From contig JBKQUS010000133.1 in assembly GCA_052325505.1 (NCBI GenBank), forward strand, positions 1,807 through 65,806: DNA of 64,000 nt, given 5' to 3'. Below the pieces are notes generated by a model. The model was given only the letters and a program-made list of their open reading frames with translations, did not search any database and was not told where the DNA came from. The position numbers and the translations under genes are program-made. This stretch comes from Limisphaerales bacterium (GTDB lineage: Bacteria; Verrucomicrobiota; Verrucomicrobiia; Limisphaerales; Palsa-1400). Shown one piece after another: positions 5,850 through 60,612 of the stretch; within the stretch, counting starts at the first letter, position 1; the number at the start of each line of letters is the position of its first letter.

Positions 5850-5880
5850 TCGCGAGATTCCTTCTCTTACAAAGGCATCA

Positions 5881-9238: not shown

Positions 9239-9367
9239 ATGAGTGTGGCAGCATCACGCGTCGTTTTGAAATTTCCGCGTTGCAGGAAGTTGAGGGTGGT
9301 AATAATTATACTTGACATTTAAGGTCCGCGCCGCGGGAAACCGGGCGGACTGGCATTTTTATTGGAC

Positions 9368-10237: not shown

Positions 10238-10268
10238 CGGCTGATGCTCCCGTAATTTCCCTTCCAAA

Positions 10269-10985
10269 ATGAAGAACCGCCGTTTGCAGTTTCCGGGCCT
10301 TTTTGCGCCCGTTTTGTTTGCGCTGGCCATGGCTGTTGCGCCGTTGCAGGCCCGGGCAGCGCATTACCTGCCCGACGGCCAACCCGACGCCATCTTACTG
10401 CTTGCGCCGCCGCCGCTGCCCGGTTCGCCGGAGGAAGCCGCCGATCTGGCCGAAGTGCGATCGGTTTGCCGCGCCGCTCCCACCAATGATGTTTCCGCCG
10501 CCATGGCTGAAAGGAAGTTCTCTGTCTTTACTTTTGCGCCAGCCATCGGGGATTTTTTCCAACCCGGCAAATATCCCAAGACCGGGCAGTTTTTCCATCA
10601 AGTGCAGAAAGACGCCGCCAACGCGACCGATGACGCGAAGGAGTTCTGGAAACGTCCGCGCCCTTACGTCTTGGATCCCACCCTGGCCGCCGGCAAACTG
10701 GAGAAGAGCTTCAGCTATCCCAGCGGCCATTCAACGGAGTCCATGGTCCTGGCGCTGGTGCTGGCTGACTTGTTTCCTGACAAGCGTGATGCCATCCTCG
10801 CGGAAGCGCGCCGCGTCGGCTGGCATCGGGTCGAGATTGCCCGGCATTATCCCACCGATATTTATGCCGGCCGGGTCTTCGCCCAGGCCATTGTGCGGGA
10901 GATGAAAAAGAATCCCGCATTCCAGGCGGATTTTGCCGCGGTCAAAGCTGAAATCGCCGCCCTGCCGCAAGCGGCCCGCAATTGA
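10269..10985 (+). CDS. Class A (PAP2 superfamily) acid phosphatase, secreted
   Basis: It has a signal peptide and the three PAP2 motifs: KRPRPY, YPSGHS and HRVEIARHYPTD. Confidence 0.85.
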   Translation: MKNRRLQFPGLFAPVLFALAMAVAPLQARAAHYLPDGQPDAILLLAPPPLPGSPEEAADLAEVRSVCRAAPTNDVSAAMAERKFSVFTFAPAIGDFFQPGKYPKTGQFFHQVQKDAANATDDAKEFWKRPRPYVLDPTLAAGKLEKSFSYPSGHSTESMVLALVLADLFPDKRDAILAEARRVGWHRVEIARHYPTDIYAGRVFAQAIVREMKKNPAFQADFAAVKAEIAALPQAARN

Positions 10986-11009
10986 CGAAGCGACGGCACC
11001 CCAGCCGCG

Positions 11010-12215
11010 TTACCGCGCCACTTCAAAGGCAAAGCCCTTGAGATACTCCGTCTCCGGGATTGCCGGCAGAACAGGATGGTCGGGCGACTGGCTGAAAGTC
11101 GCCACGCGGCGCAGGATGCGACGGGCATCGAAGGCCGCTTCCAGAATGACGGCTTGGAACATGGCGGCGTCCACGTGGTGCGAACAACAAAATGTCGCGA
11201 GCGTTCCCCCGGTCCTCAACAGCTTCAGCGCCCGCAAGTGAATCTCCTTGTAGCCCCGCATCGCATCGTCCACGGCGGCGCGCGTGCGCGTGAAGGAGGG
11301 CGGGTCAAGTATAATGCCATCAAATGCCGGGATGACCTTCTCGTGCGGGCGCACAGCGGTCCGGGCCTTGAGCCAGTCGAAGACGTTGACCGTCTCAAAG
11401 GAGCATTGCGCGGCCAGCCCGTTGGCCTGCGTCAGGCGGCCCGCCGCGGCAACCACCTCCTCGCTCTGGTCCAAGCCGTGGACATGGGCGGCGCCGGCGC
11501 GGGCGCAATGAAGCGCAAATCCCCCCAGGAAACTGAAACAATCCAATACCTGCCCGCCCCGGATCAACCCGGCCACCTTTTGGTAATTCTCTTGCTGGTC
11601 CAGGTAGAGGCCTGTCTTGTGGCCGCCCAAAATATCCACGTCGAACTTCAAGCCGTTGAGGTCGATTTGCACCGGCCCCTCCAACGTGCCGCTCAAAAGG
11701 CCGTTGCTTTCGGGCAGCCCCTCGAATTTGCGAAACGACGCCTCGCTCCGTTCCACGATGGCGCGCGGGGAGAAAATCCCCTGGAGCGCTTCGACAATCA
11801 TCGTTTTGCGCTGGTCCATGCCGAGCGAGGAGATTTGCACCACGAGAACGTCGCCGTATTTGTCAACAATCAGTCCGCTCAAAAAATCGCTCTCCGCATT
11901 GACCACGCGGAAGGACGAGGCGCGCGGCAAATGGCGCTGCCTCACCGCCAGCGCGGCGCGAATGCGTTGGGCGAAAAAGTCGCCGTTGACCTCGACCCGC
12001 TCCGGCGCAACCACCCTGACTTGGATTTTTGATTTTGAGTTATAAAAACCCACGCCCAGAAAACGCTGCCGGTGGTCCTTGATTTGCACCAGCGCGCCGT
12101 CGGCGGCCGGGGCCGTCAGGCGCAGCACCGAGGCGGCATAAATCCACGGATGCCCGGCGATGACACGGTCGGCGGCGCCGGGCGTCAGCAAAACAGTTGG
12201 CAATGAAATTTGCAT
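11010..12215 (-). CDS. rlmI: RlmI-like SAM-dependent rRNA (cytosine-C5) methyltransferase (PUA plus MTase)
   Basis: 401 aa. The N-terminus GAADRVIAGHPWIYAASV is PUA-like. The MTase core shows VLDCFSFLGGFALHCA and IILDPPSF. Confidence 0.8.
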   Translation of the reverse strand: MQISLPTVLLTPGAADRVIAGHPWIYAASVLRLTAPAADGALVQIKDHRQRFLGVGFYNSKSKIQVRVVAPERVEVNGDFFAQRIRAALAVRQRHLPRASSFRVVNAESDFLSGLIVDKYGDVLVVQISSLGMDQRKTMIVEALQGIFSPRAIVERSEASFRKFEGLPESNGLLSGTLEGPVQIDLNGLKFDVDILGGHKTGLYLDQQENYQKVAGLIRGGQVLDCFSFLGGFALHCARAGAAHVHGLDQSEEVVAAAGRLTQANGLAAQCSFETVNVFDWLKARTAVRPHEKVIPAFDGIILDPPSFTRTRAAVDDAMRGYKEIHLRALKLLRTGGTLATFCCSHHVDAAMFQAVILEAAFDARRILRRVATFSQSPDHPVLPAIPETEYLKGFAFEVAR

Positions 12216-12279
12216 TCTGTCAGCAGTCTGCCGTCCCGCGACTCATCCCACAACAATAAGGCGCGAAGATTATTACGGA

Positions 12280-12927
12280 TTATTGCGGATTATCCTGCAA
12301 CCAGGTGTCGATGGTGGAGGCCCATTGGTCCCAATTCGTGCCGTTATCTGCCTGGGTGAGAAGGCCGAGCAAATCCAGCGCCTGGTCCTTGAGGGGATGA
12401 GAGCTGTTGCTGGCGATGGCCAGCAGCATGGGAAGCTTGAGGGAATTACTGCGATTGAGCAGGTCGTTCATCAGCACGCCCGACACCTCGGGGGACGTGT
12501 CGGCATTGGTCAGCAATTCGGCCGCCCCGTCGTAATGGTCGTCCTGCACCATGTTGACCAGATGTTGCGCCAGCTCCTGCTGGGCCGCGGCGGGAGCGCG
12601 CGGGATTAAGGCCAGGATTTTGTCGGCCTTGCCGTTGTCATCGTCGTCGCCGAGAAGGATGTCATCAAGCTGTTGTTCCCAATCGGCGGCGCCCTGGTCG
12701 AGGTGGCGCGAGAACTTGACGTGCGCCGGTTCGCGCCCTGCGGGCGAAGTTTCCGGCGCAGGCTGGGCCGCCATCGGCGCGACCGCCAGCGGCGTGCTGA
12801 CTGGCGGAGGCGCGGCGACGGGCGTGACGTCCCCCCGCCGGCTGACCAGCCAGCCGATCAAAGTTCCCAAAACGGCCGCCAGCGCCAGCACCGCCAATGC
12901 CCGGAGCACCTTGTTTAAATTGCTCAT
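12280..12927 (-). CDS. Hypothetical membrane-anchored protein
   Basis: 215 aa with an N-terminal TM helix (LRALAVLALAAVLGTLIGWLV), a Pro/Ala-rich linker and an acidic helical C-terminal domain. I recognise no family. Confidence 0.5.
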   Translation of the reverse strand: MSNLNKVLRALAVLALAAVLGTLIGWLVSRRGDVTPVAAPPPVSTPLAVAPMAAQPAPETSPAGREPAHVKFSRHLDQGAADWEQQLDDILLGDDDDNGKADKILALIPRAPAAAQQELAQHLVNMVQDDHYDGAAELLTNADTSPEVSGVLMNDLLNRSNSLKLPMLLAIASNSSHPLKDQALDLLGLLTQADNGTNWDQWASTIDTWLQDNPQ

Positions 12928-42017: not shown

Positions 42018-42143
42018 TTCGCCTTTGAATCTTCAAGCGACGCCCGCGCTCCAAAACAAACAAATGCAACTAAAGGGTTGGCAAGCGGAGGCGACCGCGT
42101 ATATTTCACCGCGCAATCTGGAAAACTGATTGAATTGAAAATT

Positions 42144-43346
42144 ATGACTACGAAGAGAACAAGCCGTCACCGCGAAGATTTGACCGAAACGCCGGATTGG
42201 CTGCTGAAAAAGAAATGTCCGCACCGTGAAAAGTACCTGGCTGGCAAGCGCATCATGCCCAAGGGCATCACCGGCAGGGAAAAATTCCCCGACCTGATCG
42301 ATGAATGCTTCCTCGCCTACAACTCCGCCCGCTTGCGCGAGGTGTGCCGCTTGTACACCGAGCGTATGCTCGAACCGGATGTGACCCTCGGCATGAGCTT
42401 GTCGGGCGCGTTGACCCCGGCCGGCTTGGGCTGCTCCTCCATTGTCCCGTTGATCAAGGCAGGATTCGTGGACTGGATCGTGAGCACCGGCGCCATTCTT
42501 TACCACGATCTGCACTTCGCTTTGAATCTCCCCGTCCACGTCGGCAGCCACCTCTTTGACGACACCGATTTGCGCACCAACGATATCGTCCGCGTCTATG
42601 ACGTCCTCATCGGTTACAGCGACTGCCTGATGGCCACGGACGAAATCCTCCGCAACATTCTTATCCAGCCTGAATTCCAGAAGGAAATGGGCACCGCGGA
42701 ATTGCACTATCTGATTGGCCGCTACGCCGCCGAATGGGAGCGCAAGGCCGGCCTCAAGGATGTCTCCGTGATGGCGGCCGCCTATCGCGCCGGCGTCCCC
42801 TGCTACACCTCATCGCCCGGCGATTCGACCATCGGCATGAACGTGGCCGGCGTGGAACTGCGCGGCAACAAGCTGCGCATGAATCCGTCCATCGATGTCA
42901 ATGAAACCACCGCCATTGTCCTGGGCGCCAAGCGCTCCGGCGGCAAGAGCGGCGTCATGCTCATGGGTGGCGGCAGTCCCAAAAACTTCATGCTCCAAAC
43001 CGAGCCTCAGATTCAGGAAGTCCTGCGCATGAGGGAGTACGGCCAGGATTATTTCTTCCAGATCACCGACGCCCGCCCGGACACCGGCGGCCTTTCCGGC
43101 GCCACGCCCAGCGAGGCGGTCAGTTGGGGCAAGGTGGATCCGGACCGTTTGCCGGATGCCGTGGTCTGCTACACCGACACAAGCATCGCCCTCCCGATCC
43201 TCACCCATTACGCGCTGGCCCGCCACGCCAAACGCCCCCTCAAGCGCCTCTATGACAAACGGCCCCAGTTGGTCAAGGCCTTGACGAAGGAATATTTCGC
43301 CCACAACAAGGTGAAAATGATCGACGGGTCCGACCCTGCGATCTAG
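42144..43346 (+). CDS. Deoxyhypusine synthase-like protein (homospermidine-synthase-type candidate)
   Basis: The ATG at 42144 gives [12 protein letters not shown]. The motifs [14 protein letters not shown]...[19 protein letters not shown] and PGDSTIGM are typical of the DHS family. Confidence 0.8.
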
Positions 43347-43350
43347 GAGA

Positions 43351-44484
43351 ATGACGAAGAAGCAACTGCAGGACATCGCCCGCAAAGAGGGCACACCGGT
43401 GGTGGTGATCGATCACAACGTCGTTCGCGCCAACTATAAATCGTTCCACCGGCACATGCCCCGGGTCCAGGCCTACTACGCCGTCAAGGCGAACCCCGAC
43501 CCGGCCATCGTCCGCAGCCTCTACAAGATCGGAGCGAGCTTCGACGTGGCCTCGCTGGCGGAATTCAGGCTGGTGTACGAGAACATCAAGGGGCTGCCCG
43601 CCAGAGAGCAGCAGGATTTCATCTGGGACAAAATCATTTACGCCAATCCCACCAAGCCGCGCGAAACCCTGGAGGCCCTCGATCAATACAAGCCGCTGGT
43701 CACTTTCGACAACCTCAACGAATTGAAGAAAATCAAGCGGTTCGCCCCGCACGCCGGCGTCGTCCTGCGCGTGCGCGTGCCCAACACCGGCTCAGTCGTC
43801 GAACTGTCCTCCAAATTCGGGGCCGACCCCAGCGAGGCCGTGACACTGATTCAGGCGGCCTTCGACCTTGGACTGGTGGTGGAGGGACTGAGCTTCCATG
43901 TCGGCAGCCAGTGCATGAATTTCGAGAACTTCGTCCAGGCGCTGAACATCTCGGCCAGCGTGATGCAGGAATCCGAGGCGCGCGGCCACAAGATCAAGAT
44001 CCTCGACATCGGCGGCGGCTTCCCCGCCCCCTACCATCGCGACGTCGAATCCATTCAGGTCCTCGCCCGGAAAATCAACGCCGAGATTCACCGCCTTTTT
44101 TCCAAGGACACTGAGATCATCGCCGAACCGGGCCGGTTCGTGGTTGCCTCCGCGGCGGTTTCCATTGCCAAGATCATCGGCAAAGCCCGCCGCGACGGCA
44201 AGACTTGCTACTACATTGACGACGGGGTTTACTCCACCTTTTCCGGCATCATCTTCGATCATTGCCAGTACCATCTCAAAGCCTTCAAGCGGGGCCAGCC
44301 CGAAATCTGCGCCGTCTTCGGCCAGACCTGCGACGCCTTGGACACCATCTCCCTCTCCGAGGATTTGCCCGATTTGGAATTGGACGACCTGCTTTATTGC
44401 GAAGCGATTGGGGCCTACAGCAACGCCTCCGCCACCTGGTTCAACGGCTTCGCCCCCGCCAAAGTCGTTCACGTGAACGAGTAA
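43351..44484 (+). CDS. PLP-dependent ornithine/lysine/arginine decarboxylase (Orn/DAP/Arg decarboxylase family 2)
   Basis: 377 aa. The YAVKANPDPAIVRSLYKIGASFDVAS motif carries the PLP lysine. Also present are DIGGGFP and a C-terminal GAYS motif. It starts 4 nt after the DHS-like gene. Confidence 0.85.
   Translation: MTKKQLQDIARKEGTPVVVIDHNVVRANYKSFHRHMPRVQAYYAVKANPDPAIVRSLYKIGASFDVASLAEFRLVYENIKGLPAREQQDFIWDKIIYANPTKPRETLEALDQYKPLVTFDNLNELKKIKRFAPHAGVVLRVRVPNTGSVVELSSKFGADPSEAVTLIQAAFDLGLVVEGLSFHVGSQCMNFENFVQALNISASVMQESEARGHKIKILDIGGGFPAPYHRDVESIQVLARKINAEIHRLFSKDTEIIAEPGRFVVASAAVSIAKIIGKARRDGKTCYYIDDGVYSTFSGIIFDHCQYHLKAFKRGQPEICAVFGQTCDALDTISLSEDLPDLELDDLLYCEAIGAYSNASATWFNGFAPAKVVHVNE
44418..44484 (+). 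repeat. Copy 1 of a 67-bp direct repeat (last 22 codons plus stop of the decarboxylase gene)
   Basis: Identical to 45247..45313 except for 2 positions (C/G and C/G). Confidence 0.9.
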
Positions 44485-48771: not shown

Positions 48772-49857
48772 ATGACTGGGAAAAAATCCACGACTTCAGG
48801 CACTCCGGCCTCCCTCGGATTTGCCATGCCCGCCGAATGGGAGCGGCACGAAGCCACTTGGCTGGGCTGGCCGCACAACCCCACCGACTGGCCCCGCAAA
48901 GTCAGCACCATCCGCTGGGTTTATGGCGAAATGGTCCGCAAAATCAACCCGGGCGAAATCGTCCGGCTGTTTGTCAATTCCAAGACCGACGAAACCGCCG
49001 CCCGCCGCACTCTGACCCAGGCCCACGCCGATGTCTCCCGCGTCGAATTCATCATCCACCCGACCAACCGCGGCTGGACCCGCGACAGCGGGCCGATCTG
49101 TGTCCGGCGCAGCGGAGATAATCCGGAAACCGCGTTTGTTCATTTTCATTTCAATGCCTGGGCCAAATACCCGGATTGGCAGAAAGACCGCAAGGTGCCT
49201 GAAATTGCGGCCAAACGCCTGGGCAAGCGACTGTTCAACGCCGAGTACCAGGGCCGGGATTTTGTCATCGAAGGCGGCGCCATCGATGTCAATGGCCGGG
49301 GCACTCTTCTCACGACCGAGGAGTGCCTGCTGGATCGAAGAACCCAAGTGCGCAATCCCGGTCTGGGTCGGGAGGAAATCGAATTGGTGCTCCGGAACTA
49401 TCTTGGCGTCACGAATGTGCTCTGGCTGGGAGGCGGGGTGGTGGGCGACGATACCCACGGCCATGTCGATGACATCTGCCGGTTTGTCAACCCGACCACC
49501 GTGGTGCTGGCGCAGGAGGGCAATCCCAAGGACATCAATTACAAGCCGCTGGCCGAGAACCGGGAACGCCTGGAGGGCATGCGCCTGGAAGACGGCTCAA
49601 AAATCCAGGTGGTGGCGCTGCCCATGCCCGCGCCGATTTTTTACGACGGCTATCGTTTGCCGGCCAGCTACGCCAATTTTTACATCAGCAACGCCGCGGT
49701 TATTGTGCCCACCTTCAACGATCCAAATGACCGCATCGCCCTGGGCATCGTGGGCGATTTGTTCCGCGACCGGCCGGTGGTGGGGATTCACGCGGTGGAT
49801 TTGGTGCTGGGCTTCGGCACGCTCCATTGCCTGAGTCAACAACAGCCGGCCATTTGA
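48772..49857 (+). CDS. aguA: Agmatine deiminase
   Basis: The ATG at 48772 gives MTGKKSTTSGTPASLGFAMPAEWERHEATWLGWPHN. Later motifs are GGAIDVNGRGTLLTTEECLL, GDDTHGHVDD and ASYANFYISN, ending with GTLHCLSQQQP and its catalytic Cys. The track start at 48301 is a TTG far upstream in AT-rich repeat DNA. Confidence 0.9.
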   Translation: MTGKKSTTSGTPASLGFAMPAEWERHEATWLGWPHNPTDWPRKVSTIRWVYGEMVRKINPGEIVRLFVNSKTDETAARRTLTQAHADVSRVEFIIHPTNRGWTRDSGPICVRRSGDNPETAFVHFHFNAWAKYPDWQKDRKVPEIAAKRLGKRLFNAEYQGRDFVIEGGAIDVNGRGTLLTTEECLLDRRTQVRNPGLGREEIELVLRNYLGVTNVLWLGGGVVGDDTHGHVDDICRFVNPTTVVLAQEGNPKDINYKPLAENRERLEGMRLEDGSKIQVVALPMPAPIFYDGYRLPASYANFYISNAAVIVPTFNDPNDRIALGIVGDLFRDRPVVGIHAVDLVLGFGTLHCLSQQQPAI

Positions 49858-49909: not shown

Positions 49910-51235
49910 TTATCCCCATACTCCCGCGATCTTTGTCCCGCAGAATCGGCATTTGCCGTTGGCGATGTCCAGGCGCGTGACGGCGAAAATGTCGCGCTCG
50001 ACGACGGCTTTCTTGCAGCCGGGGCACCAAGTCGTCCCCGCGCCTTCCAAGCCGGGCACGTTGCCGATATAGACATAGCGCAGCCCTTCGGCACGGGCGG
50101 CGTCGCGGGCTTTGACCAGCGTTTCGACGGGCGTGGGCGTCAAGTGCGCGAGTTTGTGCGCCGGATGGAACCGCGAGAAGTGCAATGGCCGGTCCGGCCC
50201 CAATTCTTTCACAATCCAGCCGCACATCCGCCGGATGGCGTCGAGGTTGTCGGTGTAAGTCGGCACGACGAGGTTGATAATCTCAAACCACAGGCCGAGG
50301 TCATTGAGCGTTTTGGTTGTGGCAAGGATGGCGGACAATTTGCCGGCATTAAGTTTTTTATAGGTGTCCTCGTCGAAACCTTTCAGGTCCACGTGCGCCG
50401 CGTCGGCGAATTGATACAGATCGCGGGCGGGCCGTTCCTCGATGGAGCCGCACGTGACGACGATGTTCTTGAGTTTCCGCTCGCGCGCCGCTTTGCAGGT
50501 GTCCTGCGTGTATTCGTAAAACGCCGTCGGCTCGGAGTAAGTGTAGGAAATGGACGGGCACCCCAGCGCCTCGGTCACGGCCACGACGTCGTCGGGGAAC
50601 AGGGTCAGCCGCGCCATTTGTTCCATGGTGAGGCTGGACGGCAACGGCGGCCGCAAACGAAGCTCCCCGCCGCGCGGGTCCTTGGTTTCCTCCGGTTTCT
50701 TCTGCGAAATTTCCCAATTCTGGCAATTCAGGCAGCGGAAAACGCAGCCGGAAGTGGCAATGGAAAAGCTCAATGTGCCCGGCATGAAATGATACAGCGG
50801 CTTTTTCTCGACCGGATCAACGTGGAACGTGCAGGGGTCGCCATAGACCATCGTGTAGAGCGTGCCGTCGAAGTTGACCTTGTTGCGGCAATGGCTGCGG
50901 TCGCCCGGCCCCAGAATGCAGTTGTTCGGGCAGACCTTGCACTGCACGTTGCGCCCGAGCTTGAGGTAATGCCGCGCCTCTTTTACCCAGCCGCGTTTTT
51001 GCCACAGTTCCCAAAGCTGGCCCGTGGGCGCGTCGCCTTTGAAAATGTCGGCGGGGGCCTCGGACTCGCGCCACTTGGCGAAGAAATCGAACCATGAAAC
51101 GTCCGCCAGACCGATCACGCCCGCCGCGCCCAGAGCGATGGCCGCGCGGCGCGAAATGCCACCCGCCGAACCGGCTTCACGACGCGATGTAGCGCAGGGT
51201 TTCACGTCTCCGGGCGGGGTTTGATCCAGCCCCAC
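49910..51235 (-). CDS. AmmeMemoRadiSam-system radical SAM enzyme (PFL-activase-like) with a Tat-like N-terminus
   Basis: 441 aa with a radical SAM CX3CX2C motif (SGCVFRCLNCQNWEIS). An upstream Cys cluster reads CKVCPNNC...HC. A C-terminal zinc-ribbon-like stretch reads WCPGCKKAVV...GKCRFCG. The N-terminus reads GISRRAAIALGAAGVIGLA. Confidence 0.85.
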   Translation of the reverse strand: MGLDQTPPGDVKPCATSRREAGSAGGISRRAAIALGAAGVIGLADVSWFDFFAKWRESEAPADIFKGDAPTGQLWELWQKRGWVKEARHYLKLGRNVQCKVCPNNCILGPGDRSHCRNKVNFDGTLYTMVYGDPCTFHVDPVEKKPLYHFMPGTLSFSIATSGCVFRCLNCQNWEISQKKPEETKDPRGGELRLRPPLPSSLTMEQMARLTLFPDDVVAVTEALGCPSISYTYSEPTAFYEYTQDTCKAARERKLKNIVVTCGSIEERPARDLYQFADAAHVDLKGFDEDTYKKLNAGKLSAILATTKTLNDLGLWFEIINLVVPTYTDNLDAIRRMCGWIVKELGPDRPLHFSRFHPAHKLAHLTPTPVETLVKARDAARAEGLRYVYIGNVPGLEGAGTTWCPGCKKAVVERDIFAVTRLDIANGKCRFCGTKIAGVWG

Positions 51236-51465
51236 CGCTGAAAAGCAAGATACGCCGCCGGCACAACGTGCGCGAGCACCAAAACAATCAACGGCAGGTG
51301 AAACATGCGGTGCAGCGTCAGCGCGCTCTTCTCGTCCAGCAGCTTGCCGAAGCCATGGCGGCCATCCATGATGTAACCAGTCAACAAGAAGCCCATCACC
51401 AGCGGCAGCAACAGCCAGCCGCTCCAGCGCATCGTTTTAAGCGAAATAAGGTTGAGTTTGGTCAT
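51202..51465 (-). CDS. Small hypothetical membrane protein
   Basis: 87 aa with 2-3 predicted TM helices (WSGWLLLPLVMGFLLTGYI; HLPLIVLVLAHVVPAAYLAF). It overlaps the radical SAM ORF by 34 nt and starts 12 nt after the upstream gene. Confidence 0.5.
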   Translation of the reverse strand: MTKLNLISLKTMRWSGWLLLPLVMGFLLTGYIMDGRHGFGKLLDEKSALTLHRMFHLPLIVLVLAHVVPAAYLAFQRWGWIKPRPET

Positions 51466-51477
51466 ACGCAGTCTTTC

Positions 51478-53664
51478 TCACGCAGCCGATCCCGGCGCGG
51501 CGGCATTTGGCAGGAATGCCAGCGCGCCGCCCAGCAAGTTCATCACCGCCGCCAACACGCAAACGCCCGTCACGCCAATCAACGGAATCAAAAGCGCCCC
51601 GGCCAGCGACGCGCCCAGGAATGCGCCGACAAAATCCGACGTGTAAAGGCGCGAGGCGCCCGAGACGGTGCCGTCGAATTCCAGCCGGTTGGCCAGCGGA
51701 AATTGCATTCCCACCAGCGCCGCGAGGACCAGCGTCAGCAGCGCAATGGCGGTCTTGATGAGCACAACCGCCGCCGTCGAGCCTCCGAGCCGGTTCAACA
51801 ACGGAAGTAAAAACGCGAGCAGAATGGCATAACCGGCAATGGCAAAGGCGAGCAGGGCCAGATGTTTTGCAGTCGAAGCGCGCCGATTCACCATCATCGC
51901 CCCAAGCGCCAGGCCGGCCATAAAAACCGTGACGATAAGCCCCAGTTGATGATAAACGGAGCCGCACAGAACCTGGAACGCCAGCAACAGCACAACCTCC
52001 AATGCCGTTGCCGCGAAACCCGAGGCGAACAGGACAAAAGCCGTTCCGCGCAACCGCACCAGATAGACGCACAGCAGGACAAGAAGCGACGCCTGCAATG
52101 CGCCGAACCCGGCATTGAACTGACTCATCCAGTGGCGGAGATGATAAAAGTACAGCACCGGGTTGAAGTCCCTGTTTATTGCCGCCGGCTGCGCGATGGC
52201 GTTGCGCATGTCCATCATGCGGTCGGCTGCCAGCATCGCGTCGAGGTAATGCCGGTTCATCAGTTTGGTGGCGATGCCCTGCTTTTCGATCCGCGAAGCG
52301 ATGTCGTCAAAGAGAGGGCCGTCCGACGCGAGAAAGAAAACTTGCCCGCCGGGAATCACCAGCACGTTTGCGAAGGATGGTTTCAACGACCGGCCGGCCG
52401 AAGCCAGCATCCGCGCCAACTCCGGACTGACGTAGTTTTCATAATGCCCGAGCGAAAAGGACATGACGCCGTTCGGGGAAAGCGCCCGCTTGACGTCCGC
52501 CAAAAACTCCACGGTAAAGAACCGGTTGAGTTGCGCGGTGGAAGGGGCGGGGATATCGACAATGACCACATCGTATTTTTCGCCGGTTTGCCTGACGAAC
52601 AGGCGCCCGTCGGTGTTGATCACTTTGATGCGGCTGTCGGCCAAATTGTCCGGCAGGTATTTCCGCCCGAACTTCAGAATCAACGGGTCGAGTTCCACAT
52701 AATCAACCCTGCTGACGTGGCATTTCAGGAGTTCCCTGGCCGTGCCCGAAATGCCGCCGCCCACCAGCAGCACCTGGCGGGCATCCGGCCGTTCTGCCAT
52801 CGCGTAATGCACGGCCTCCTCCACATGCTGATCGTCACGGGTCGAGGTGAGCGGAACGCCGTTCTCGATGAAATCAAACTGCCCGTCGGATTCCGTGACG
52901 AGCAGTTTGCCGTAAGGCGAATTGGCCCGAGCCACAATGTGCTGCCGGGGATACTGCCAAGCCGTGGAAACTCCATCGAGGTCAAACAAAACCGCCGACG
53001 CCGCCACTGCCCCGGCCAGAGCGCCCGCCATCGCCAAAAGCCATTTGTGTCCAGCGTGAAAACCCATCACCCCGGCGAGCAGCAGGTTCAAAAGAGCGGG
53101 ATACACCAGAATGCCGGCATGATCGAGAAACCTGATCAGCACAAAGCTGAACAGCACGCCGCCGCCGATGCTACCAATGCTGTCCGCCACGTACACATGA
53201 CCGATGCCGGTCGCGCCCTCTTCGCGCGCCATGATCGAGCACGCCAGGGTCAGGCCATAGCCGGCCACGACGCAATACGGCAGAAGCAGGAGGAAGGCGC
53301 TCAAGACGGTTTCACCGACACCCACCGCCGCGCCGCGGATGAATATGACGTTGTGCAATCCCCGCAGAACAAACACCTGCCACAGCGGCAGCACGGCCAG
53401 CAGGATTTGCACGGCGGCCAGGACGGCCCGTGGATTTTGGAGTTTGTCCGAAGTGCGGCCAAGCCAGGCGCCGATTCCCATCAGCAGCAACCAATTGCCC
53501 AGCACCAGGCCCAACACCAGTTCGTTTCCGCTAAACGCGCCCAGCAACTCGCGCATCAGGGCCAGTTGCGTCATCACGCACGAAACGCCCATCGCGGCCA
53601 CGGCTGCAAGAACAAGCCGCCGTTGACTCGTGACCGCCCGCAGAATCGGCTTCCGGTCGGCCAT
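51478..53664 (-). CDS. Polytopic membrane protein with a central spermidine-synthase-like (aminopropyltransferase fold) domain
   Basis: 728 aa. About 7 N-terminal and about 6 C-terminal TM helices flank VLLVGGGISGTARELLK...VDYVELDPLILKFGRKYLP...RIKVINTDGRLFV...YDVVIVDIPAPSTAQLNRFFTVEF. The canonical GGGDGG and D(S/T)xDP motifs read GGGISG and DIPAP. Confidence 0.8.
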   Translation of the reverse strand: MADRKPILRAVTSQRRLVLAAVAAMGVSCVMTQLALMRELLGAFSGNELVLGLVLGNWLLLMGIGAWLGRTSDKLQNPRAVLAAVQILLAVLPLWQVFVLRGLHNVIFIRGAAVGVGETVLSAFLLLLPYCVVAGYGLTLACSIMAREEGATGIGHVYVADSIGSIGGGVLFSFVLIRFLDHAGILVYPALLNLLLAGVMGFHAGHKWLLAMAGALAGAVAASAVLFDLDGVSTAWQYPRQHIVARANSPYGKLLVTESDGQFDFIENGVPLTSTRDDQHVEEAVHYAMAERPDARQVLLVGGGISGTARELLKCHVSRVDYVELDPLILKFGRKYLPDNLADSRIKVINTDGRLFVRQTGEKYDVVIVDIPAPSTAQLNRFFTVEFLADVKRALSPNGVMSFSLGHYENYVSPELARMLASAGRSLKPSFANVLVIPGGQVFFLASDGPLFDDIASRIEKQGIATKLMNRHYLDAMLAADRMMDMRNAIAQPAAINRDFNPVLYFYHLRHWMSQFNAGFGALQASLLVLLCVYLVRLRGTAFVLFASGFAATALEVVLLLAFQVLCGSVYHQLGLIVTVFMAGLALGAMMVNRRASTAKHLALLAFAIAGYAILLAFLLPLLNRLGGSTAAVVLIKTAIALLTLVLAALVGMQFPLANRLEFDGTVSGASRLYTSDFVGAFLGASLAGALLIPLIGVTGVCVLAAVMNLLGGALAFLPNAAAPGSAA

Positions 53665-53670
53665 GCGGCA

Positions 53671-55239
53671 TTACTCCGCCTCCGCGAACGCCTCGACGTG
53701 ATAGATGGAGACGCTGACATCGCGCCCGCGCCAGTCGTCCGGCGCGCAGCCGGCTTTTTCCGCGAGGCGGTCGAGGAATTGGACCTTGTCCGGCAGTTGC
53801 TCCCAGACCTGCGGCAGGTACGTCGCCCCGCGCGGGCCGATGCGGAGCACCACGCCGTCCTCGCCCGGCTCCAGCTTGTTGAGCAGGTCATCCGGCGAAT
53901 TGAAACTCAGCGGCTCCGGCTCCGTCAGCACGCTGATTTCGATCTTGATTTGCTTCACCTCATCGGGCCGCACCGGCTGGAAACGCGGGTCGCGCGTGGC
54001 CGCGTTCCGCGCATTGTCCACCACCGCCTGGTAAAGCGCTTCCTGCGGCAGAATGTGGCCGATGCACCCGCGCAACTCGCCATGCTCGGTCAACGTCACA
54101 AAGCATCCTTTCTTCTCCGATATTCCTGGCGACAAATCCCGGGCGTTCACTTCGGGTCCCGGCGAATCGGCGTTGGTCGAAACGCGGCTCAACGTGCCGC
54201 GGGCCAGATCAAGCAAAAATTTCCGTTCCTTCGCCCCGAAGTTTTGCGGCGCCGGCTCGTAAAAGGCGATGGCGGAATAACCCACCACCCGGCTTTTGTC
54301 GCCGGCCGTGTCGCCGCTGTTGCGATAATCCAGCAACTGCGTCTTCCAGCCTTTGGCACGGGCCAGATGCATCAGCGTCAAAATGGGTGTTTTGCCGCAG
54401 GCTTCCTGCGTTTTCATGGCGTCGATGTTCATGTCGCAAACCGCCTTGACACAGCGCGTGTCCAGTTCCCTGGCCTCATCATAGGTATGATAATGACTGA
54501 GATCGGAACTGGCCACCACGAGGGTTTTGCTGTCAATCATCCCCGCCAATACCTTCGCGGCCTGTTCAGTGTCACACTCGCCAAAGACGACGGGCAGGAT
54601 GGTGAAGTTGGTCAGGGTTTTTTGCAGGAAAGGCACCTGCACCTCGATGGAATGTTCCCAAGTGTCGGGCGTGTCCTCCCCCGCAGGCGGCGCGGGCTTG
54701 TAAGATTGGGCCCACCACGCCGGCCGCTGCACCATGCATTGCGGTTCCAGAACAAATGGGCGCATCCCGGCCAGTTGCCGCGCCCGGCCCGAGATGGGAA
54801 CGGTTCCCAATGGCGTTTGGTAAGCATCCACGTTCGGGACCGACGCCCCCTCAAACCACGCATAATGGCTGGGGCCGAGGATGACGACGGTTTGGAAATC
54901 GTGGCCCGCCAGCGTTTTGTAGGCAATCGCCGCCGTCGGTCCCGAGAACGGGTAGCCCGCATGAGGGCAAACCAAGGCCTTCAAGCGCGGGATATGATGC
55001 GCGGGCGCACCTTGCAGTAATCCCTCAACATCCCTTGACAGGGCTGCTTCTTCCGCCGGATAGAACAGCCCGGCCACGGCGGGCGCGCGGACGCGCGGAT
55101 GGCTATTCGTGAGTTGTGCCGGCTGAAGGGGAAGGTCCGCGCGCGGCGTTTCCCCACGGCAATAATACCCGAAGAAAGGCAACAGGAGAGCGGCCAGGAC
55201 AATCCCGACGGCCGCCTTTCGTCTGTTTCCCGCAGGCAT
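53671..55239 (-). CDS. Fused Memo-like (AmmeMemoRadiSam protein B) and AMMECR1 (protein A) protein with an N-terminal membrane anchor
   Basis: The ATG at 55239 gives MPAGNRRKAAVGIVLAALLLPFFGYY. The Memo part shows AVAGLFYP...LVCPHAGYPFSGPTAA...ILGPSH...SSDLSHYH. The AMMECR1 part shows GCFVTLTEHGELRGCIGH...ATRDPRF...GATYLPQVW. Confidence 0.85.
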   Translation of the reverse strand: MPAGNRRKAAVGIVLAALLLPFFGYYCRGETPRADLPLQPAQLTNSHPRVRAPAVAGLFYPAEEAALSRDVEGLLQGAPAHHIPRLKALVCPHAGYPFSGPTAAIAYKTLAGHDFQTVVILGPSHYAWFEGASVPNVDAYQTPLGTVPISGRARQLAGMRPFVLEPQCMVQRPAWWAQSYKPAPPAGEDTPDTWEHSIEVQVPFLQKTLTNFTILPVVFGECDTEQAAKVLAGMIDSKTLVVASSDLSHYHTYDEARELDTRCVKAVCDMNIDAMKTQEACGKTPILTLMHLARAKGWKTQLLDYRNSGDTAGDKSRVVGYSAIAFYEPAPQNFGAKERKFLLDLARGTLSRVSTNADSPGPEVNARDLSPGISEKKGCFVTLTEHGELRGCIGHILPQEALYQAVVDNARNAATRDPRFQPVRPDEVKQIKIEISVLTEPEPLSFNSPDDLLNKLEPGEDGVVLRIGPRGATYLPQVWEQLPDKVQFLDRLAEKAGCAPDDWRGRDVSVSIYHVEAFAEAE

Positions 55240-55425: not shown

Positions 55426-56249
55426 TTAAACGCCAGCGCAGCGGCGGTGGCGGCCGAGGAGTGCGGTGACGCCAACGGCCAGCAACCCCAAAGCCGACGG
55501 TTCAGGCACGGGCAACATTTCGTCCTGGAAGGCGAGAGCCATCGGCCCGAACGTGGAGGCAAAGGTGCTTTCCACTCCCCCCGGCGTGTAATCATAGATG
55601 TTGCCGCCTTCTGTATCCCCCACAAACAGATCGCCCGCGCTGTTAAAGGCCAGTCCTATAGGACAATAGTGATCCAACCCGGAGGCAAAGGTGCTTTGCA
55701 CTCCGCCCGGCGTGAATTCATAGATGCTGCTGGAGCCGACGCTGCGACCAGCCAACACAAACAGATCGCCCGCACTGTTAAAGGCCAGTCCTTCCAGTGA
55801 ACCACCAAAATACCCGGAGGCAAAGGTGCTTTGCACTCCGCCCGGCGTGTATTCATAGATGTTGTCTGTGGCTGCATCCGACACAAACAGATTGCCCGCG
55901 CTATTAAAGGCCAGTCCAAAAGGATGACCCACCCCGGAGGCAAAGGTGCTTTGCACTCCGCCCGGCGTAATTTCATCAATTTCATAGTTGTCGCTGGGGT
56001 CGCCTAAATAATTCGCCACAAACAGATCGCCCGCACTGTTAAAGGCCAGTCCAGCAGGAGAAAAAAAACGGAGGCAAAGGTGGTTTCTGCTCCGCTCGGC
56101 GTGAATTCATCAATGTTGCCGCTGGCATCCGACACAAACAGATTCTGCGCCGGCGCGCTGGAGGCAATCAGCAGGACCGCTCCCGCACAGACCGCTCCGC
56201 CGAATGAGTGACACACGGCACGAATGTTGGATTTGAATTTTGTTTTCAT
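55426..56249 (-). pseudogene. NHL/SGL-like repeat protein with a PEP-CTERM tail, split by a frameshift at a T8 (plus-strand A8) run
   Basis: ORF 56004..56267 carries the signal peptide plus the first repeat (NLFVSDASGNIDEFTPSGAETTFAS). ORF 55426..56019 carries 4 further repeats (GLAFNSAGDLFV...IYEYTPGGVQSTFAS) and ends VPEPSALGLLAVGVTALLGRHRR. Adding one T at 56061..56068 joins them in frame (...FASVFFSPAGLAFNSAGDLFVANYLG...). Confidence 0.7.
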
Positions 56250-57296: not shown

Positions 57297-59849
57297 CTAT
57301 TTCCCACCAGCGACCTTGTCGGTGAAGTCCTCGGTCAACCGCACATTTTCAGTGAGGGGCAGATCGCGGGACGAGGGGCCCACGGCGATTTCATAGGTTC
57401 CGGCGTCGGCCTTCCACTGGCGGCCGGGGACGTCAAAGTAAGCGAGGTCGCGGGGTTTGAGGGTGAAGGTGATGGTTTTGGTTTCGCCGGGCTTGAGGGG
57501 GACTTTGGCGAAGCCCTTGAGTTCGCGTGGGGCTTTCTCGATTTTGGGGCGGGGATCGTGGACGTAGAGTTGGGCGACTTCCTCGCCGTCGCGATGGCCG
57601 GTGTTGGTTACGTCCACGGAGGCGGTAAGCGAGCCATCGGCTTTCAGGCTGGCGGCGGAGAGCTTGAGATTTTTGTATGTGAAGGTGGTGTAGGAGAGTC
57701 CGAAGCCGAAGGGGAAGAGGGGCTGGATGCCCGCGTGGTCAAAGTGGCGGTAGCCGACGAAAATGCCTTCCGCATAATTCACTTGATGATTGGCGCCGGG
57801 GAAGTTGGGGGCGTCCGAATAATCGTCGCGATTGGCGGCGAAGGTGTCGGGGAGCTTGCCGGATGGGTTGACGTTGCCGAAGAGAACGGCCGCGAGGGCG
57901 GCGCCGCCTTCCTGGCCGGGGAACCAGGCGTCGAGGAGGGCGGGCACCTGCGGGAGCCAATCGTTCATGGTCACGGGCGCGCCGGCATTCAGGAGGACGA
58001 TGGTTTTGGGATTGGCTGCGGCCACGGCGCGAATGAGGTCGGATTGATGGGCGGGCAGATCCATGGACGGACGGTCGGCCCCTTCGCCTTCGGTATGCCG
58101 GGTGGAAACACAAACCACGGCGACGTCGCTATTCTTGGCGGCTTCGATTGCGTCGTTGTAAGGGGAAACGCTGGGCAGCAGCCAGCCGAAGCGGGCCACG
58201 TAATCGCCGCCGTTCTGGTAGAATTCGATGCGCACATCGTAGGACTTGCCAGCCTCCAGGCTGGCGGGGGCGGTCACGGTGCTGACGGAGCCGTCCCGCC
58301 ATTGATCGATCAGGAGTTTGCCGTCGAGATAAACCCGGTAGCCGTCATCGCCGGTGAAGGAGAAGCCGACGGTGCCCGTGACGGGCGCGAGCAGCTTGCC
58401 GGTCCAGCGAACGCTGAAGTGAGTGGTGGCAAGCCCTGGCGCCGGCGCAGCGGGCGAATTGATGTTGACCTGGTTTTCGATGCGTGAGCACACGGGCTGG
58501 CCGTCAAGCGACATGTTTCCGAAGTATTGGGCCCGGAAGCCACTGGTTCCGTCGGGTTGCCGGATGGCGGACCCGGGGACGAGAATGCCATCCATTTCGG
58601 CGGCGGCGAGGCGGATGGCGACCTGATCGCCGACTACGTTTTTGATGCCATCGATCAATTCGGTGGTGTGGGGGGGGGTCACTTCCGGACTGCCGAGTGC
58701 TCCAACCTGGAGTTTTTTGGCCGGTTCGCCGATCAGGGCGATGGATTTGATGCGGGTGCGGTCGAGGGGCAGGAGGTTTTGGTTGTTTTTGAGGAGAACG
58801 ATGCCCTTGGTGGCGGTTTCGAGGGCGAGTTGATCATGTTCGCGGGAGTTGACGAGCTGGCCGTCCGGGTGGAGCGGGTTATCGAGCAGGCCCACGCGGA
58901 TGATCGTCCGGAGAATACGATGCACGGAATCGTCCACGGCGGCCTGGGTGACGGTGCCGTCGGCGAGTGCGGCCTTGAGTTTGGGAACGCTCATGTTATC
59001 GCCGGTGGGCATTTCCAAGTCGTTGCCGGCCTGCACGACGGAGGTTTCATGGACGCCGCCCCAGTCCGACATGACGAGACCATTGAAGGCCCACTCGCCT
59101 TTCAAGATATCCTTGAGCAGGATGGGATTGGCGCTGGAATGCCGGCCATTGACCTGGTTGTAGGAACTCATGACGGACCAGACGTTGCCTTCCTTCACGC
59201 CGGCTTCAAATGCGGGCAGATAGATTTCGCGCAAGGCGCGCTCGTTTACAGTGGCATTGATGTCGGAACGGTCGGTTTCCTGGTTGTTGCAGGCGAAATG
59301 CTTGATGCAGGCGGCATTGCCGCTGGATTGGAGGCCCCGGATGTAGGCGGCGGCGAGGCGGGAGGCGAGGAAAGGGTCTTCGCTGAAATATTCGGCGTTG
59401 CGCCCGCCGAGCGGGGAGCGGTGGATGTTGACGGCGGGGCCGAGGAGGATCGAGGTGCCCTCGCCCTTGTTCCGCGACTCCACACCGATGGCGTGGCCCA
59501 CGCGCGCGATAAGTTCGGGATCCCAGGTTGATGCCATTAGCACGCCGCAGGGGAAGGCGGTTGCCGGACCTTGGGTGCGGTCGGTGCCGCCGCGCACACC
59601 CTGGCCGGCATCGGCCATGCCCATGGCAGGAATGCCGAGCCGCGGAATGGGCTGGGTGGTGAAGCCGGTGCCGCCGAGGAGGGCGAGTTTTTCGTCCGGC
59701 GTCAGCCGGTTGAACAGGTCGTTCACGCGGTCCTCGATGGGCGCCCGGAGGTTCTGGTAAGGGAGTGTTTCCTCCGCGTTCGTTCCGCGGACGGCGAGAG
59801 CGAGCGCAAGGACGGCCAGTATGCAGGTTTGGGGCAAAGATGTGTTCAC
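57297..59849 (-). CDS. GH3 beta-glucosidase (BglX-like) with an inserted PA14 domain and a C-terminal Fn3-like domain
   Basis: Motifs include GGRNAEYFSEDPFL and MSDWGG (nucleophile Asp). The PA14 segment reads GFRAQYFGN...FSVRWTGKL...GDDGYRVYLDGKLLID. A GTG at 59849 gives a signal-peptide-like N-terminus VNTSLPQTCILAVLALALAV; the track ORF extends to 59957. Confidence 0.88.
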   Translation of the reverse strand: MNTSLPQTCILAVLALALAVRGTNAEETLPYQNLRAPIEDRVNDLFNRLTPDEKLALLGGTGFTTQPIPRLGIPAMGMADAGQGVRGGTDRTQGPATAFPCGVLMASTWDPELIARVGHAIGVESRNKGEGTSILLGPAVNIHRSPLGGRNAEYFSEDPFLASRLAAAYIRGLQSSGNAACIKHFACNNQETDRSDINATVNERALREIYLPAFEAGVKEGNVWSVMSSYNQVNGRHSSANPILLKDILKGEWAFNGLVMSDWGGVHETSVVQAGNDLEMPTGDNMSVPKLKAALADGTVTQAAVDDSVHRILRTIIRVGLLDNPLHPDGQLVNSREHDQLALETATKGIVLLKNNQNLLPLDRTRIKSIALIGEPAKKLQVGALGSPEVTPPHTTELIDGIKNVVGDQVAIRLAAAEMDGILVPGSAIRQPDGTSGFRAQYFGNMSLDGQPVCSRIENQVNINSPAAPAPGLATTHFSVRWTGKLLAPVTGTVGFSFTGDDGYRVYLDGKLLIDQWRDGSVSTVTAPASLEAGKSYDVRIEFYQNGGDYVARFGWLLPSVSPYNDAIEAAKNSDVAVVCVSTRHTEGEGADRPSMDLPAHQSDLIRAVAAANPKTIVLLNAGAPVTMNDWLPQVPALLDAWFPGQEGGAALAAVLFGNVNPSGKLPDTFAANRDDYSDAPNFPGANHQVNYAEGIFVGYRHFDHAGIQPLFPFGFGLSYTTFTYKNLKLSAASLKADGSLTASVDVTNTGHRDGEEVAQLYVHDPRPKIEKAPRELKGFAKVPLKPGETKTITFTLKPRDLAYFDVPGRQWKADAGTYEIAVGPSSRDLPLTENVRLTEDFTDKVAGGK

Positions 59850-60612
59850 CGGGATTTCCCATTTGGTTTGTTGTTCATGTCGTAAATGAGCTGTTTTCTG
59901 TCGCTGGCGTGATTTTCCCCGCGCGGCACGGATTTGCAAGCCATTCTGGAGTGCCAAAACTTCGTTTTTCGGTGGAAGTGGCTTGCGCGCAACCGATTTT
60001 CACTTCCCAACCAGCCCTTGCAAATGGAAGCAAAGACGCTTCTCCCTTGCTGACGGATGTTTTCATGCAATCTCTTTCACTTTTCATTTATGTAATCGTT
60101 TTGCGCGAGACGTTGCGGGAAGGAACCATGATGCAGCAAAAAGCCTTTCTGCGCTTATTACCGGAGACCATAGTAACGCCGATGGGGTCGATTTCGGGAT
60201 CACTTTTAACTTTGCTGCCGACATAACAGGCGTCTCCCCCCAGGACATCCACATCGAGGCAATTTACAACGACGCGCGACGGCATTTCCTCCTCGCAAAA
60301 AGCTGTTTAAGTCAGATTAAGATTTTAAACGGGCAGATCCCACCAGCAGTCGCGGATGACTTCGCGGACCTCGAAATAACCCTAGATGAGTTCTTCGTGG
60401 GGCCGACAGTAGCCCCGCACGATAAGCTTGATGGAAAGTCTACGACGGATGAACAACGCGCCCACCACAACACTTTCCGACCCGCTTGAGCAGGCCGGAG
60501 TAATCCCAAAACAGTCAACAATTAACATAAAGAAAGGTCAAACTTATGAACAAAAAGCAAAAGCAGCAATTTATGGCCCAAGTGCCACCGCTGGAATCGA
60601 AAGGAGGCTTCT

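Follow-up and report, generated by a model that had tools for sequence, protein, structure and literature searches.

Organization of the locus

We analyzed a 64,000-nucleotide stretch of the metagenome-assembled genome of a Limisphaerales bacterium (Verrucomicrobiota; GenBank assembly GCA_052325505.1, contig JBKQUS010000133.1, positions 1,807 to 65,806 of the forward strand; called the window below, with positions counted from its first letter), which carries four closely packed minus-strand genes: a fusion of Memo and AMMECR1, a 728-aa membrane protein with an inserted domain of the spermidine synthase (SpeE) fold, an 87-aa membrane protein, and a radical S-adenosylmethionine (SAM) enzyme (Table 1). 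The AMMECR1, Memo and radical SAM families (AmrA, AmrB, and AmrS) make up the AmmeMemoRadiSam system, referred to here as the Amr trio. We are confident that the locus belongs to a conserved, exported module, whose specific component is the 728-aa protein, apparently a transporter of the major facilitator superfamily (MFS) type fused to the SpeE-fold domain (the MFS-SpeE protein).

The families named for the four proteins in a preliminary description of this stretch, made from the sequence alone, are all borne out by profile searches, the 87-aa protein being a conserved protein without a family. The Memo-AMMECR1 protein matches PF01875 (174 bits) and PF01871 (160 bits) in Pfam, as well as TIGR04336 (235.3 bits, cutoff 26) and TIGR04335 (188.9 bits, cutoff 99); it contains the Memo motifs PHAGY, GPSH, DLSH, EHSIE, and CG, and the AMMECR1 motifs RGCIG and DPRF (defined as RGChG and DxR-aromatic; PMC2034487). 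AmrS matches TIGR04337 (322.3 bits, cutoff 220) and PF04055, and its CX3CX2C motif is CVFRCLNC (50,723-50,746). In the 728-aa protein, an identical copy of which exists in the public record GCA_052915985.1, PF01564 (Spermine_synth) covers residues 283-445 (95.7 bits) with a hydrophobic block on each side; the protein passes NF037959 (66 bits, cutoff 40), and it scores below the cutoffs of all SpeE equivalog models (TIGR00417, 90.8 bits against 249.6; PRK00811, 113.4 against 260; PRK03612, 178.6 against 472).

The coordinates of the four open reading frames (ORFs), the 6-nt and 12-nt gaps between them, and the altered SpeE motifs GGGISG (52,744-52,761) and DIPAP (52,543-52,557) had all been given correctly. 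The 34-nt overlap between the 87-aa gene and amrS holds if AmrS starts at the GTG at 51,235, but not if it starts at the GTG at 51,205, which is the start in the public record and gives a 4-nt overlap (GTGA). The alternative start region (51,205-51,235, minus strand) lies within the 3′ end of the 87-aa gene, and an out-of-frame peptide, M/V-G-[LM]-D-Q, recurs at the same junction in many loci from the Planctomycetes-Verrucomicrobia-Chlamydiae group and the Myxococcota (L003-L050); since this peptide may simply follow from the conserved RWGWIK codons of the 87-aa gene, it does not decide between the two overlaps. A scan of the operon, which was not discriminating, gave no convincing internal promoter or terminator, and a search of the whole window and eight diverse related loci with Rfam, for a SAM riboswitch or other leader, gave no match. 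In all likelihood, the 1052-aa ORF that runs on the plus strand (51,862-55,020), antisense to the SpeE-like and Memo-AMMECR1 genes, only shadows GC-rich coding DNA.

Table 1. Positions of the four-gene module, the parts of its proteins, and the polyamine-related genes in the window.
Feature	Position	Strand	Basis
amrB-amrA fusion (Memo + AMMECR1), 522 aa, exported or lipoprotein-type	53671..55239	-	profiles and motifs
Signal peptide or anchor of Memo-AMMECR1 (MPAGNRRKAAVGIVLAALLLPFFGYYC...)	55150..55239	-	hydropathy, homologue N-termini
MFS-like membrane protein with 14 transmembrane (TM) helices and an inserted SpeE-fold domain, 728 aa	51478..53664	-	PF01564, NF037959, AlphaFold2 (AF2)
N-terminal membrane block, 7 TM helices (MFS N-domain + TM7)	52954..53664	-	AF2, Foldseek
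SpeE-fold domain, predicted outward; pocket of SAM type, not decarboxylated-SAM (dcSAM) type	52120..52941	-	Foldseek, phmmer, family alignment
C-terminal membrane block (TM8 + MFS C-domain)	51481..52119	-	AF2, internal repeat motifs
87-aa two-TM protein, H-x13-H; candidate haem-b or electron-transfer subunit	51202..51465	-	homologues, invariants
amrS, AmmeMemoRadiSam radical SAM enzyme (start 51235 or 51205)	49910..51235	-	TIGR04337, PF04055
Twin-arginine-type signal or anchor of AmrS (ISRRAAIALGAAGVIGLAD)	51101..51157	-	conserved RR motif and hydrophobic region
Agmatine deiminase (PAD_porph)	48772..49857	+	profile match
Deoxyhypusine-synthase-like gene (PF01916)	42078..43346	+	profile match
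Ornithine/arginine/diaminopimelate-type pyridoxal-phosphate decarboxylase, directly after the deoxyhypusine-synthase-like gene	43351..44484	+	profile match

Conservation of the four-gene arrangement

A genome scan with a 30-sequence alignment of the SpeE-like family identified 80 related loci, whose six-frame ORFs were searched with the window's proteins for neighboring genes. Bacterial loci come from the Verrucomicrobiota, Planctomycetota, Lentisphaerae, Bacteroidota, Ignavibacteriota, Chlorobi, Syntrophales, Nitrospirota, Myxococcota, and Spirochaetota, and archaeal loci from DPANN lineages (Woese-, Nano-, Aenigm-, and Undinarchaeota) and the Methanosarcinales, a spread of about ten bacterial phyla and several archaeal lineages. 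The gene order is nearly universal: AmrS lies directly downstream of the SpeE-like gene, and Memo-AMMECR1 directly upstream (sometimes divergent). Among the 53 loci that are fully flanked (at least 2.5 kb on both sides), the full trio is found beside the SpeE-like gene in 39, AmrS only in six, Memo-AMMECR1 only in another six, and no Amr gene in two. With Amr genes abutting the SpeE-like gene in 51 of 53 loci and the arrangement recurring across phyla, the SpeE-like and 87-aa genes co-occur with the trio far above chance, as the preliminary description had expected, and chance adjacency of the four genes is rejected. Its picture of a trio interrupted by the SpeE-like gene, on the other hand, does not hold, since the order is native to a separate clade. 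Clustering of the neighboring genes, with shadow ORFs removed, revealed no further conserved gene except TatC (four loci, across phyla).

The SpeE-like family is large (more than 3,100 cluster representatives at E<1e-30 in an exhaustive profile search), and its best-scoring representatives share the same full-length architecture, with a SpeE domain between two TM blocks, down to about 31% identity. The MFS-SpeE gene persists in the reduced genomes of DPANN archaea (L033, L038, L047, L051, L053, L056, and L059), in many cases together with the whole exported trio, and this argues for an important envelope-related role.

Export signals on AmrS and Memo-AMMECR1

The window's AmrS has an N-terminal extension with a twin arginine and a hydrophobic stretch, which the preliminary description did not mention. 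All of the SpeE-adjacent AmrS proteins (more than 60) carry such an extension of 60-90 aa, with the motif [ST][RK]R-x-[FA][LI] followed by a G/A-rich hydrophobic stretch; the motif reads SRREFLK in archaea, Nitrospirota, and Spirochaetota, TRRELIK in Syntrophales, SKREFLK (a KR-type variant) in Bacteroidota, and SRRAAIALGAAG in the window. When the N-termini of the window's AmrS and nine homologues were searched, the twin-arginine translocation (Tat) signal model TIGR01409 was above its cutoff of 16.7 bits in five of the ten, from five lineages (17.6-28.3 bits), and Pfam TAT_signal stayed below threshold.

The Memo-AMMECR1 protein had been described as having an N-terminal membrane anchor. Its N-terminus is indeed hydrophobic, but it is a signal peptide, which aligns with the lipoprotein signals of its relatives. 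Among the 53 Memo-AMMECR1 proteins encoded beside a SpeE-like gene, 51 have a signal-peptide-like N-terminus, of Sec or lipoprotein type, and 29 a lipobox-like cysteine. The start at 55,239 places the signal peptide of the window's protein at its N-terminus, matching the homologues; its residues at -1 and -2 (YY) are atypical for a lipobox. The AMMECR1 motifs RGChG and DxR-aromatic are intact in 60 of 61 exported loci, so the chemistry outside the cytoplasm is expected to be the same.

Six plasmid-borne classical amrS loci used as controls (from Ideonella, Trichlorobacter, Segatella, Sinorhizobium, Methylocystis, and Mycobacterium) show no extension, and no SpeE-like gene within 6 kb. For an unbiased sample, we drew 120 metagenome stretches by the motif DP[IV]EKKPL, which is common to both AmrS classes, and obtained 12 AmrS with the Tat-type extension and 56 without it. 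A SpeE-like gene is present in 7 of the 12 Tat-type loci and in none of the 56 others (Fisher p = 8e-7); when only loci with 2.5 kb or more on one side are counted, the figures are 7/9 and 0/36. Similarly, Memo is encoded without a signal peptide in 15 of 17 non-Tat loci. A midpoint-rooted neighbor-joining tree groups all 70 Tat-type AmrS in a single clade, which has 73 members. Judging by these sequences, the SpeE-like protein is found only with AmrS predicted to be exported, and these AmrS form one clade.

The three AmrS without a twin arginine inside this clade are those of L085 (a Segatella hominis plasmid), L108, and L143, and may be secondary losses or changes of export route; the L108 AmrS has a Sec-like hydrophobic N-terminus, and Memo begins with what resembles a signal peptide in both L085 and L108. 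TatC or TatA adjoins the exported Amr module in L065, L210, and three archaeal loci, an adjacency that is only suggestive of Tat-dependent export of AmrS. TatC lies at L065:3,990-4,814 (plus strand) and TatC with TatA at L210:5,293-6,179 (minus strand); the adjacency is notable in small DPANN genomes. We also observed a second radical SAM gene with a Tat-type signal of its own (MKITRRDFIK...) directly upstream of a Tat-type AmrS (L112:1,777-2,940, minus strand), and a Tat-signal DUF362 protein together with a SPASM radical SAM enzyme beside AmrS in L194.

Fold and topology of the 728-aa protein

The AF2 model of the 728-aa protein (pLDDT 89.5, pTM 0.89) consists of seven helices (residues 7-43, 48-74, 78-103, 116-149, 151-179, 182-203, and 207-226), the SpeE-fold domain (242-515), and then six helical elements (520-537, 540-567, 571-593, 599-626, 630-661, and 666-716), the last of which counts as two helices by internal repeat. 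Foldseek with the full-length model gave only SpeE structures among the best 50 matches. The N-terminal block modeled alone (pLDDT 90.4) matched almost only MFS transporters (probability about 1, TMq 0.45-0.58 over about 200 columns), including FLVCR2, NorA, OxlT, GlpT, G6PT, XylE, VMAT2, and MdfA. Sequence motifs repeat between the N- and C-terminal blocks, and Q33, R38, E39, E48, and W58 are invariant in the N-terminal block. The simplest reading of the model is a 14-helix MFS-like transporter with a 6+1 / 1+6 layout and the SpeE domain inserted in the TM7-TM8 hairpin. PDB entries 9d7x and 9d7u (735-751 aa, entitled "The spm-bound structure" and "The low pH structure") are among the MFS-like matches of the N-terminal block, with no sequence match to the SpeE domain.

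The family-averaged number of lysines and arginines per loop alternates: 1.7, 0, 2.4, 0.4, 1.9, and then 1.6 in the N-terminal block (where the short TM5-TM6 turn is unresolved), and 1.3, 0.3, and 2.1 in the C-terminal block, followed by 1.9 in the C-terminal tail, which is positively charged in the homologues. This pattern fits an N-terminus inside, the SpeE domain outside, and the C-terminus inside.

It is probable that the soluble domains of the module really lie outside the cytoplasm. The hydrophobic N-termini could instead be mere tethers that hold the enzymes on the cytoplasmic face, with the SpeE-like protein as a membrane scaffold; the signal of the window's AmrS passes no Tat model, and we found no precedent for radical SAM chemistry outside the cell. 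We consider this very improbable, as positive charges precede the hydrophobic segments and predict an N-in/C-out orientation, AmrS orthologues pass TIGR01409, the lipobox cysteines in the Memo-AMMECR1 signals imply export, TatC or TatA is adjacent in five loci, and the loop charges put the SpeE domain outside.

The cofactor pocket of the SpeE-fold domain

The best PDB relative of the SpeE-fold domain is 1UIR (Foldseek TMt 0.71, phmmer 2e-22), the Thermus triamine/agmatine aminopropyltransferase, and the N-terminal beta domain of the SpeE fold is retained. We tabulated the pocket residues over 146 family representatives. The ribose contact E324 and the adenine contact D352 are invariant, and position 305, the dcSAM-specific aspartate of GGGDGG, is V, I, L, F, A, or M in all 146 (I305 in the window). 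At the position of the catalytic aspartate (370) the family has D in 48% and N in 32%, with mostly A or G in the remainder; the second aspartate (373) is D or E in 66% and alanine in the window (DIPAP). The best-conserved stretch of the whole protein is the gate-keeping loop, TAQLNRFYTxEF.

The window's protein thus reads GGG-I-SG-T in place of GGG-D-GG-V (I305 and T308). In a plant spermidine synthase, the change D103I abolished aminopropyl transfer and brought a gain of SAM-dependent methyl transfer, V106T improved SAM binding, and the change equivalent to D103I in the Thermotoga enzyme (D101I) lowered kcat about 2000-fold (PMC3725402). The window carries the equivalents of both plant substitutions, and the domain is therefore a SAM-type (or adenosyl-type) binding module and not a plain spermidine synthase, in agreement with the preliminary description. 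From the model we infer that it keeps the adenosine and ribose contacts in a pocket of SAM type, with Ile and Thr for Asp and Val.

The same pocket bears on the main rival to SAM supply, namely that the SpeE-like domain is a working transferase (of methyl, aminopropyl, or 3-amino-3-carboxypropyl groups) and that the MFS part moves a shared membrane or envelope substrate instead of SAM; this corresponds to the "modification machine" of the preliminary description without its polyamine element. The full SpeE fold including the N-terminal beta domain, the retention of D370 in the window, and the strong conservation of the gate-keeping loop all agree with a transferase, and putrescine N-methyltransferase provides a precedent for a SpeE fold with Ile at the GGGDGG aspartate that can methylate (PMC3725402). 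However, neither aspartate is constant in the family, an outward-facing enzyme would still need SAM outside, so that the problem of SAM supply remains, and the exclusive tie to exported AmrS would go unexplained, given that cytoplasmic systems share the catalytic motifs and never carry the SpeE-like gene. We regard a transferase as rather unlikely.

Polyamine genes and other neighbors

The agmatine deiminase and the deoxyhypusine-synthase-like and decarboxylase genes are present in the window as the preliminary description reported, and it took them, with the SpeE-like protein, as signs of a modification machine that acts on or with a polyamine-like or SAM-derived group. The SpeE fold itself and its closest PDB relative, an aminopropyltransferase, would agree with a polyamine role. 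The neighborhood is not conserved, however: no homologue of the agmatine deiminase or of the ornithine/arginine decarboxylase was found within the 8-kb flanks of the 80 related loci, the deiminase being adjacent only in the window's own genome (L001) and absent even in Verrucomicrobia whose proteins are 71-82% identical, and the deoxyhypusine-synthase-like gene occurs in one of the 80 loci (L063) and the decarboxylase in none. Clustering of neighboring genes likewise yields no polyamine gene, the deiminase lies on the opposite strand and converges on the operon, and the dcSAM-specific aspartate, the loss of which abolishes aminopropyl transfer (PMC3725402), is absent throughout the family. The polyamine neighborhood is therefore coincidental, and we rejected the polyamine-pathway reading; that the module acts on or with polyamines is the least probable of the explanations considered here. 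The gene pair at 42,078-44,484 (plus strand) looks like a separate polyamine pair of the homospermidine type, unrelated to the Amr module by conservation.

On the other side of the operon, a small NHL-repeat protein with a PEP-CTERM sorting tail is encoded just upstream (55,426-56,019, minus strand), and a GH3 glycosidase with PA14 and Fn3-like domains further upstream (57,297-59,957, minus strand); neither recurs in the related loci of other genomes.

The 87-aa protein and membrane modules of putative redox type

The 87-aa protein has 318 homologues (the best 120 of the 318 at 71-89% identity), and no Pfam or NCBIfam family matches it above cutoff. Its profile matches 43 loci, from Planctomycetota, Verrucomicrobiota, Lentisphaerae, Myxococcota, and some Syntrophales, and, among archaea, from Methanosarcinales, Aenigmatarchaeota, and one other archaeon. 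W17, H52, and H66 are invariant, with the two histidines 14 residues apart on helix 2 (H-x13-H), as are the haem ligands on cytochrome b helices B and D. The match to Sdh_cyt is weak (E=0.14, 12.6 bits, cutoff 25.8), and some JGI records label the homologues [quoted passage not shown] A redox role of the 87-aa protein is plausible, at somewhat less than even odds.

Other redox-type modules are found with the MFS-SpeE protein. In five loci (four Bacteroidota and one Ignavibacteriota), the SpeE-like protein has an N-terminal extension of 110-130 aa with the invariant W/H/H and the H-x13-H spacing in a joint MAFFT alignment; this extension never occurs alongside a separate 87-aa gene, and it has a weak match to DUF4405 (E = 0.019). 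Four family members of 919-1012 aa (P0326, P0328, P0338, and P0352) have two C-terminal Fer4_5 (NapH-type) repeats above the Pfam cutoff. Both members that were looked up (P0338 and P0328) lie inside Amr operons, one followed by a canonical Tat-signal AmrS and the other adjoining TatC and TatA. Finally, a NapH-like polyferredoxin is encoded in the metagenome locus L092, next to a Tat-type AmrS and a divergent MFS-SpeE-like gene. As far as these sequence matches go, then, four different redox-type membrane modules converge on the MFS-SpeE protein. The divergent relative (712 aa, 12 TM helices) in the L092 region at 5,362-12,392 has no PF01564 match, and the locus also contains two DUF362 proteins, one with a Tat signal.

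A model of an exported radical SAM system

We propose, with a probability of about 0.5, that the four genes form one module, an exported version of AmmeMemoRadiSam in which the membrane parts supply SAM and electrons. A radical SAM enzyme that works outside the cytoplasm needs both there. The MFS-SpeE protein is proposed as the SAM exporter because it is the only conserved membrane-spanning component, the only adenosyl-binding one, and exclusive to exported AmrS; that it supplies or presents SAM is a tentative assignment, which we hold with less confidence than the redox role of the 87-aa protein. In such a scheme, SAM would leave the cytoplasm through the MFS part, perhaps against 5′-deoxyadenosine or methionine, and would be bound on the outside by the SpeE-fold domain, which would pass it on to AmrS tethered to the membrane. 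Electrons would cross the membrane by way of the 87-aa protein, probably a dimer with two haems, and the target of AmrS, Memo, and AMMECR1 would be an extracytoplasmic or membrane-embedded molecule. Under this model, or with a transferase in its place, the substrate of the exported clade could not be RNA. The more general proposal, that the whole radical SAM clade works outside the cytoplasmic membrane, with a dedicated MFS transporter delivering SAM and small redox modules delivering electrons, is more speculative still. A "membrane-associated machine using a SAM-derived group," close to what the preliminary description proposed, remains a fair account of the locus.

AmrS might also be exported already loaded with SAM and use it catalytically, as lysine 2,3-aminomutase does, while the MFS-SpeE protein removes a product, senses, or serves as an anchor. 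Proteins exported by the Tat system are folded and loaded with their cofactors, and regeneration of SAM is known from some radical SAM enzymes. This alternative would explain neither the strictly conserved SAM-type nucleotide pocket on the outer face nor the specificity of the MFS-SpeE protein for exported AmrS, and we consider it improbable.

Several observations weigh against the model of an exported module supplied by membrane proteins. Regarding the data set and the export signals, all the related loci are on metagenome-assembled genomes or metagenome contigs, the N-terminus of the window's AmrS (SRRAAIAL...) matches neither TIGR01409 nor Pfam TAT_signal (PF10518), and no SpeE-like gene lies within 5-7 kb in L205, an exported locus. 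Regarding the transporter, the topology is inferred from the AF2 model, a crude positive-inside count, and fold analogy; the MFS fold matches of the N-terminal block have weak E-values (0.07-0.3), the two membrane blocks alone match no Pfam family and no MFS domain, and DSSP draws residues 666-716 as one helix, which must be read as two. We know of no MFS transporter of SAM, and the aspartate D370 retained in the window's protein makes transferase activity possible. Regarding electron delivery, haem or quinol-level carriers are a poor thermodynamic match for the reduction of a radical SAM cluster. In addition, hhalign of the 87-aa family against the fused extension gave a probability of 0.8%, so that homology is unsupported and we treat the two as analogous modules; and the 87-aa protein and its fused analogues are absent from many loci, including most Bacteroidota and several archaea, which makes such modules accessory.

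Conservation of AMMECR1 and Memo extends from archaea to humans, where both have links to disease, and no reaction is known for either. In 2019, AMMECR1 was listed as a top-priority uncharacterized archaeal family (PMC6393860), and in a 2026 survey it was the strongest Pfam marker of anaerobes (PMC13386939). An exported clade with intact catalytic motifs would rule out RNA as the substrate of that clade and point to something reachable from the outer face of the membrane. It would challenge the assumption that radical SAM chemistry is cytoplasmic, and among its predictions are export of SAM, docking of SAM on the outside, and delivery of electrons across the membrane. The association also gives a first functional context to the "fused MFS/spermidine synthase" family, with its more than 3,000 cluster representatives. 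If the model is true, it would describe the first radical SAM system outside the cytoplasm and, for bacteria or archaea, the first exporter of SAM, and the substrate of the AMMECR1/Memo/radical-SAM trio, at least in the exported clade, would be an envelope or membrane molecule and not RNA.

Comparison with known systems

The Amr trio is a known system of unknown function, and the name "fused MFS/spermidine synthase" is in use in NCBIfam (NF037959). Burroughs et al. reportedly extended the gene contexts of Memo in 2019 and are said to have proposed modification of nucleotide bases and isoprenoids, so part of the Amr gene context may already be described there. We found no NCBIfam or Pfam model that ties the NF037959-type protein or the 87-aa protein to Amr genes, and our literature search found no paper linking AMMECR1 with spermidine synthase or describing Tat-exported radical SAM enzymes.

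The window shares with classical AmmeMemoRadiSam all three families, above their curated cutoffs and co-located, with the AMMECR1, Memo, and CX3CX2C motifs intact. The classical three-part system is cytoplasmic, and modification of RNA bases has been suggested for it (PMC2034487, PMC4075521), whereas the system in the window has export signals on its soluble parts, an AmrS from a separate clade, and one or two added membrane proteins. AmrS is a distant relative of pyruvate formate-lyase activating enzyme (TIGR02493, 45 bits, far below cutoff), but it belongs to another family and has no glycyl-radical partner nearby.

Similarly, the SpeE-fold domain shares with the Thermus enzyme (1UIR) the two-domain fold (TMt about 0.7) and the conserved ribose-binding Glu and adenine-binding Asp, and with plant putrescine N-methyltransferase the Ile at the GGGDGG aspartate and the Thr three residues on. 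It differs from SpeE in being inserted in a 14-TM protein, with a predicted outward orientation, in the variable catalytic aspartate of its family, and in scores below the equivalog cutoffs. The membrane SpeE proteins of PRK03612 consist of a TM block and SpeE only, and the window's protein reaches 179 bits against their cutoff of 472. It does pass NF037959, and its close relatives bear that name in public records, although the name implies no tie to Amr genes, export, or redox modules. Compared with 14-TM MFS transporters (the DHA2-type layout), the modeled N-terminal block superposes on MFS N-domains, though with weak E-values, and the N/C repeat and predicted 6+2+6 layout are alike, but the loop that joins the two central helices, predicted to lie outside, holds an enzyme-fold domain of 270 aa, and no Pfam MFS family matches. 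The 87-aa protein resembles the dihaem helices of cytochrome b in having H-x13-H on one TM helix (haem binding is only predicted), and the redox-type modules recall NapH-type Fe-S proteins and DUF4405 through the Fer4_5 repeats fused to family members and the weak DUF4405 and Sdh_cyt matches; it differs from these electron-transfer modules in having two helices only and belonging to no curated family.

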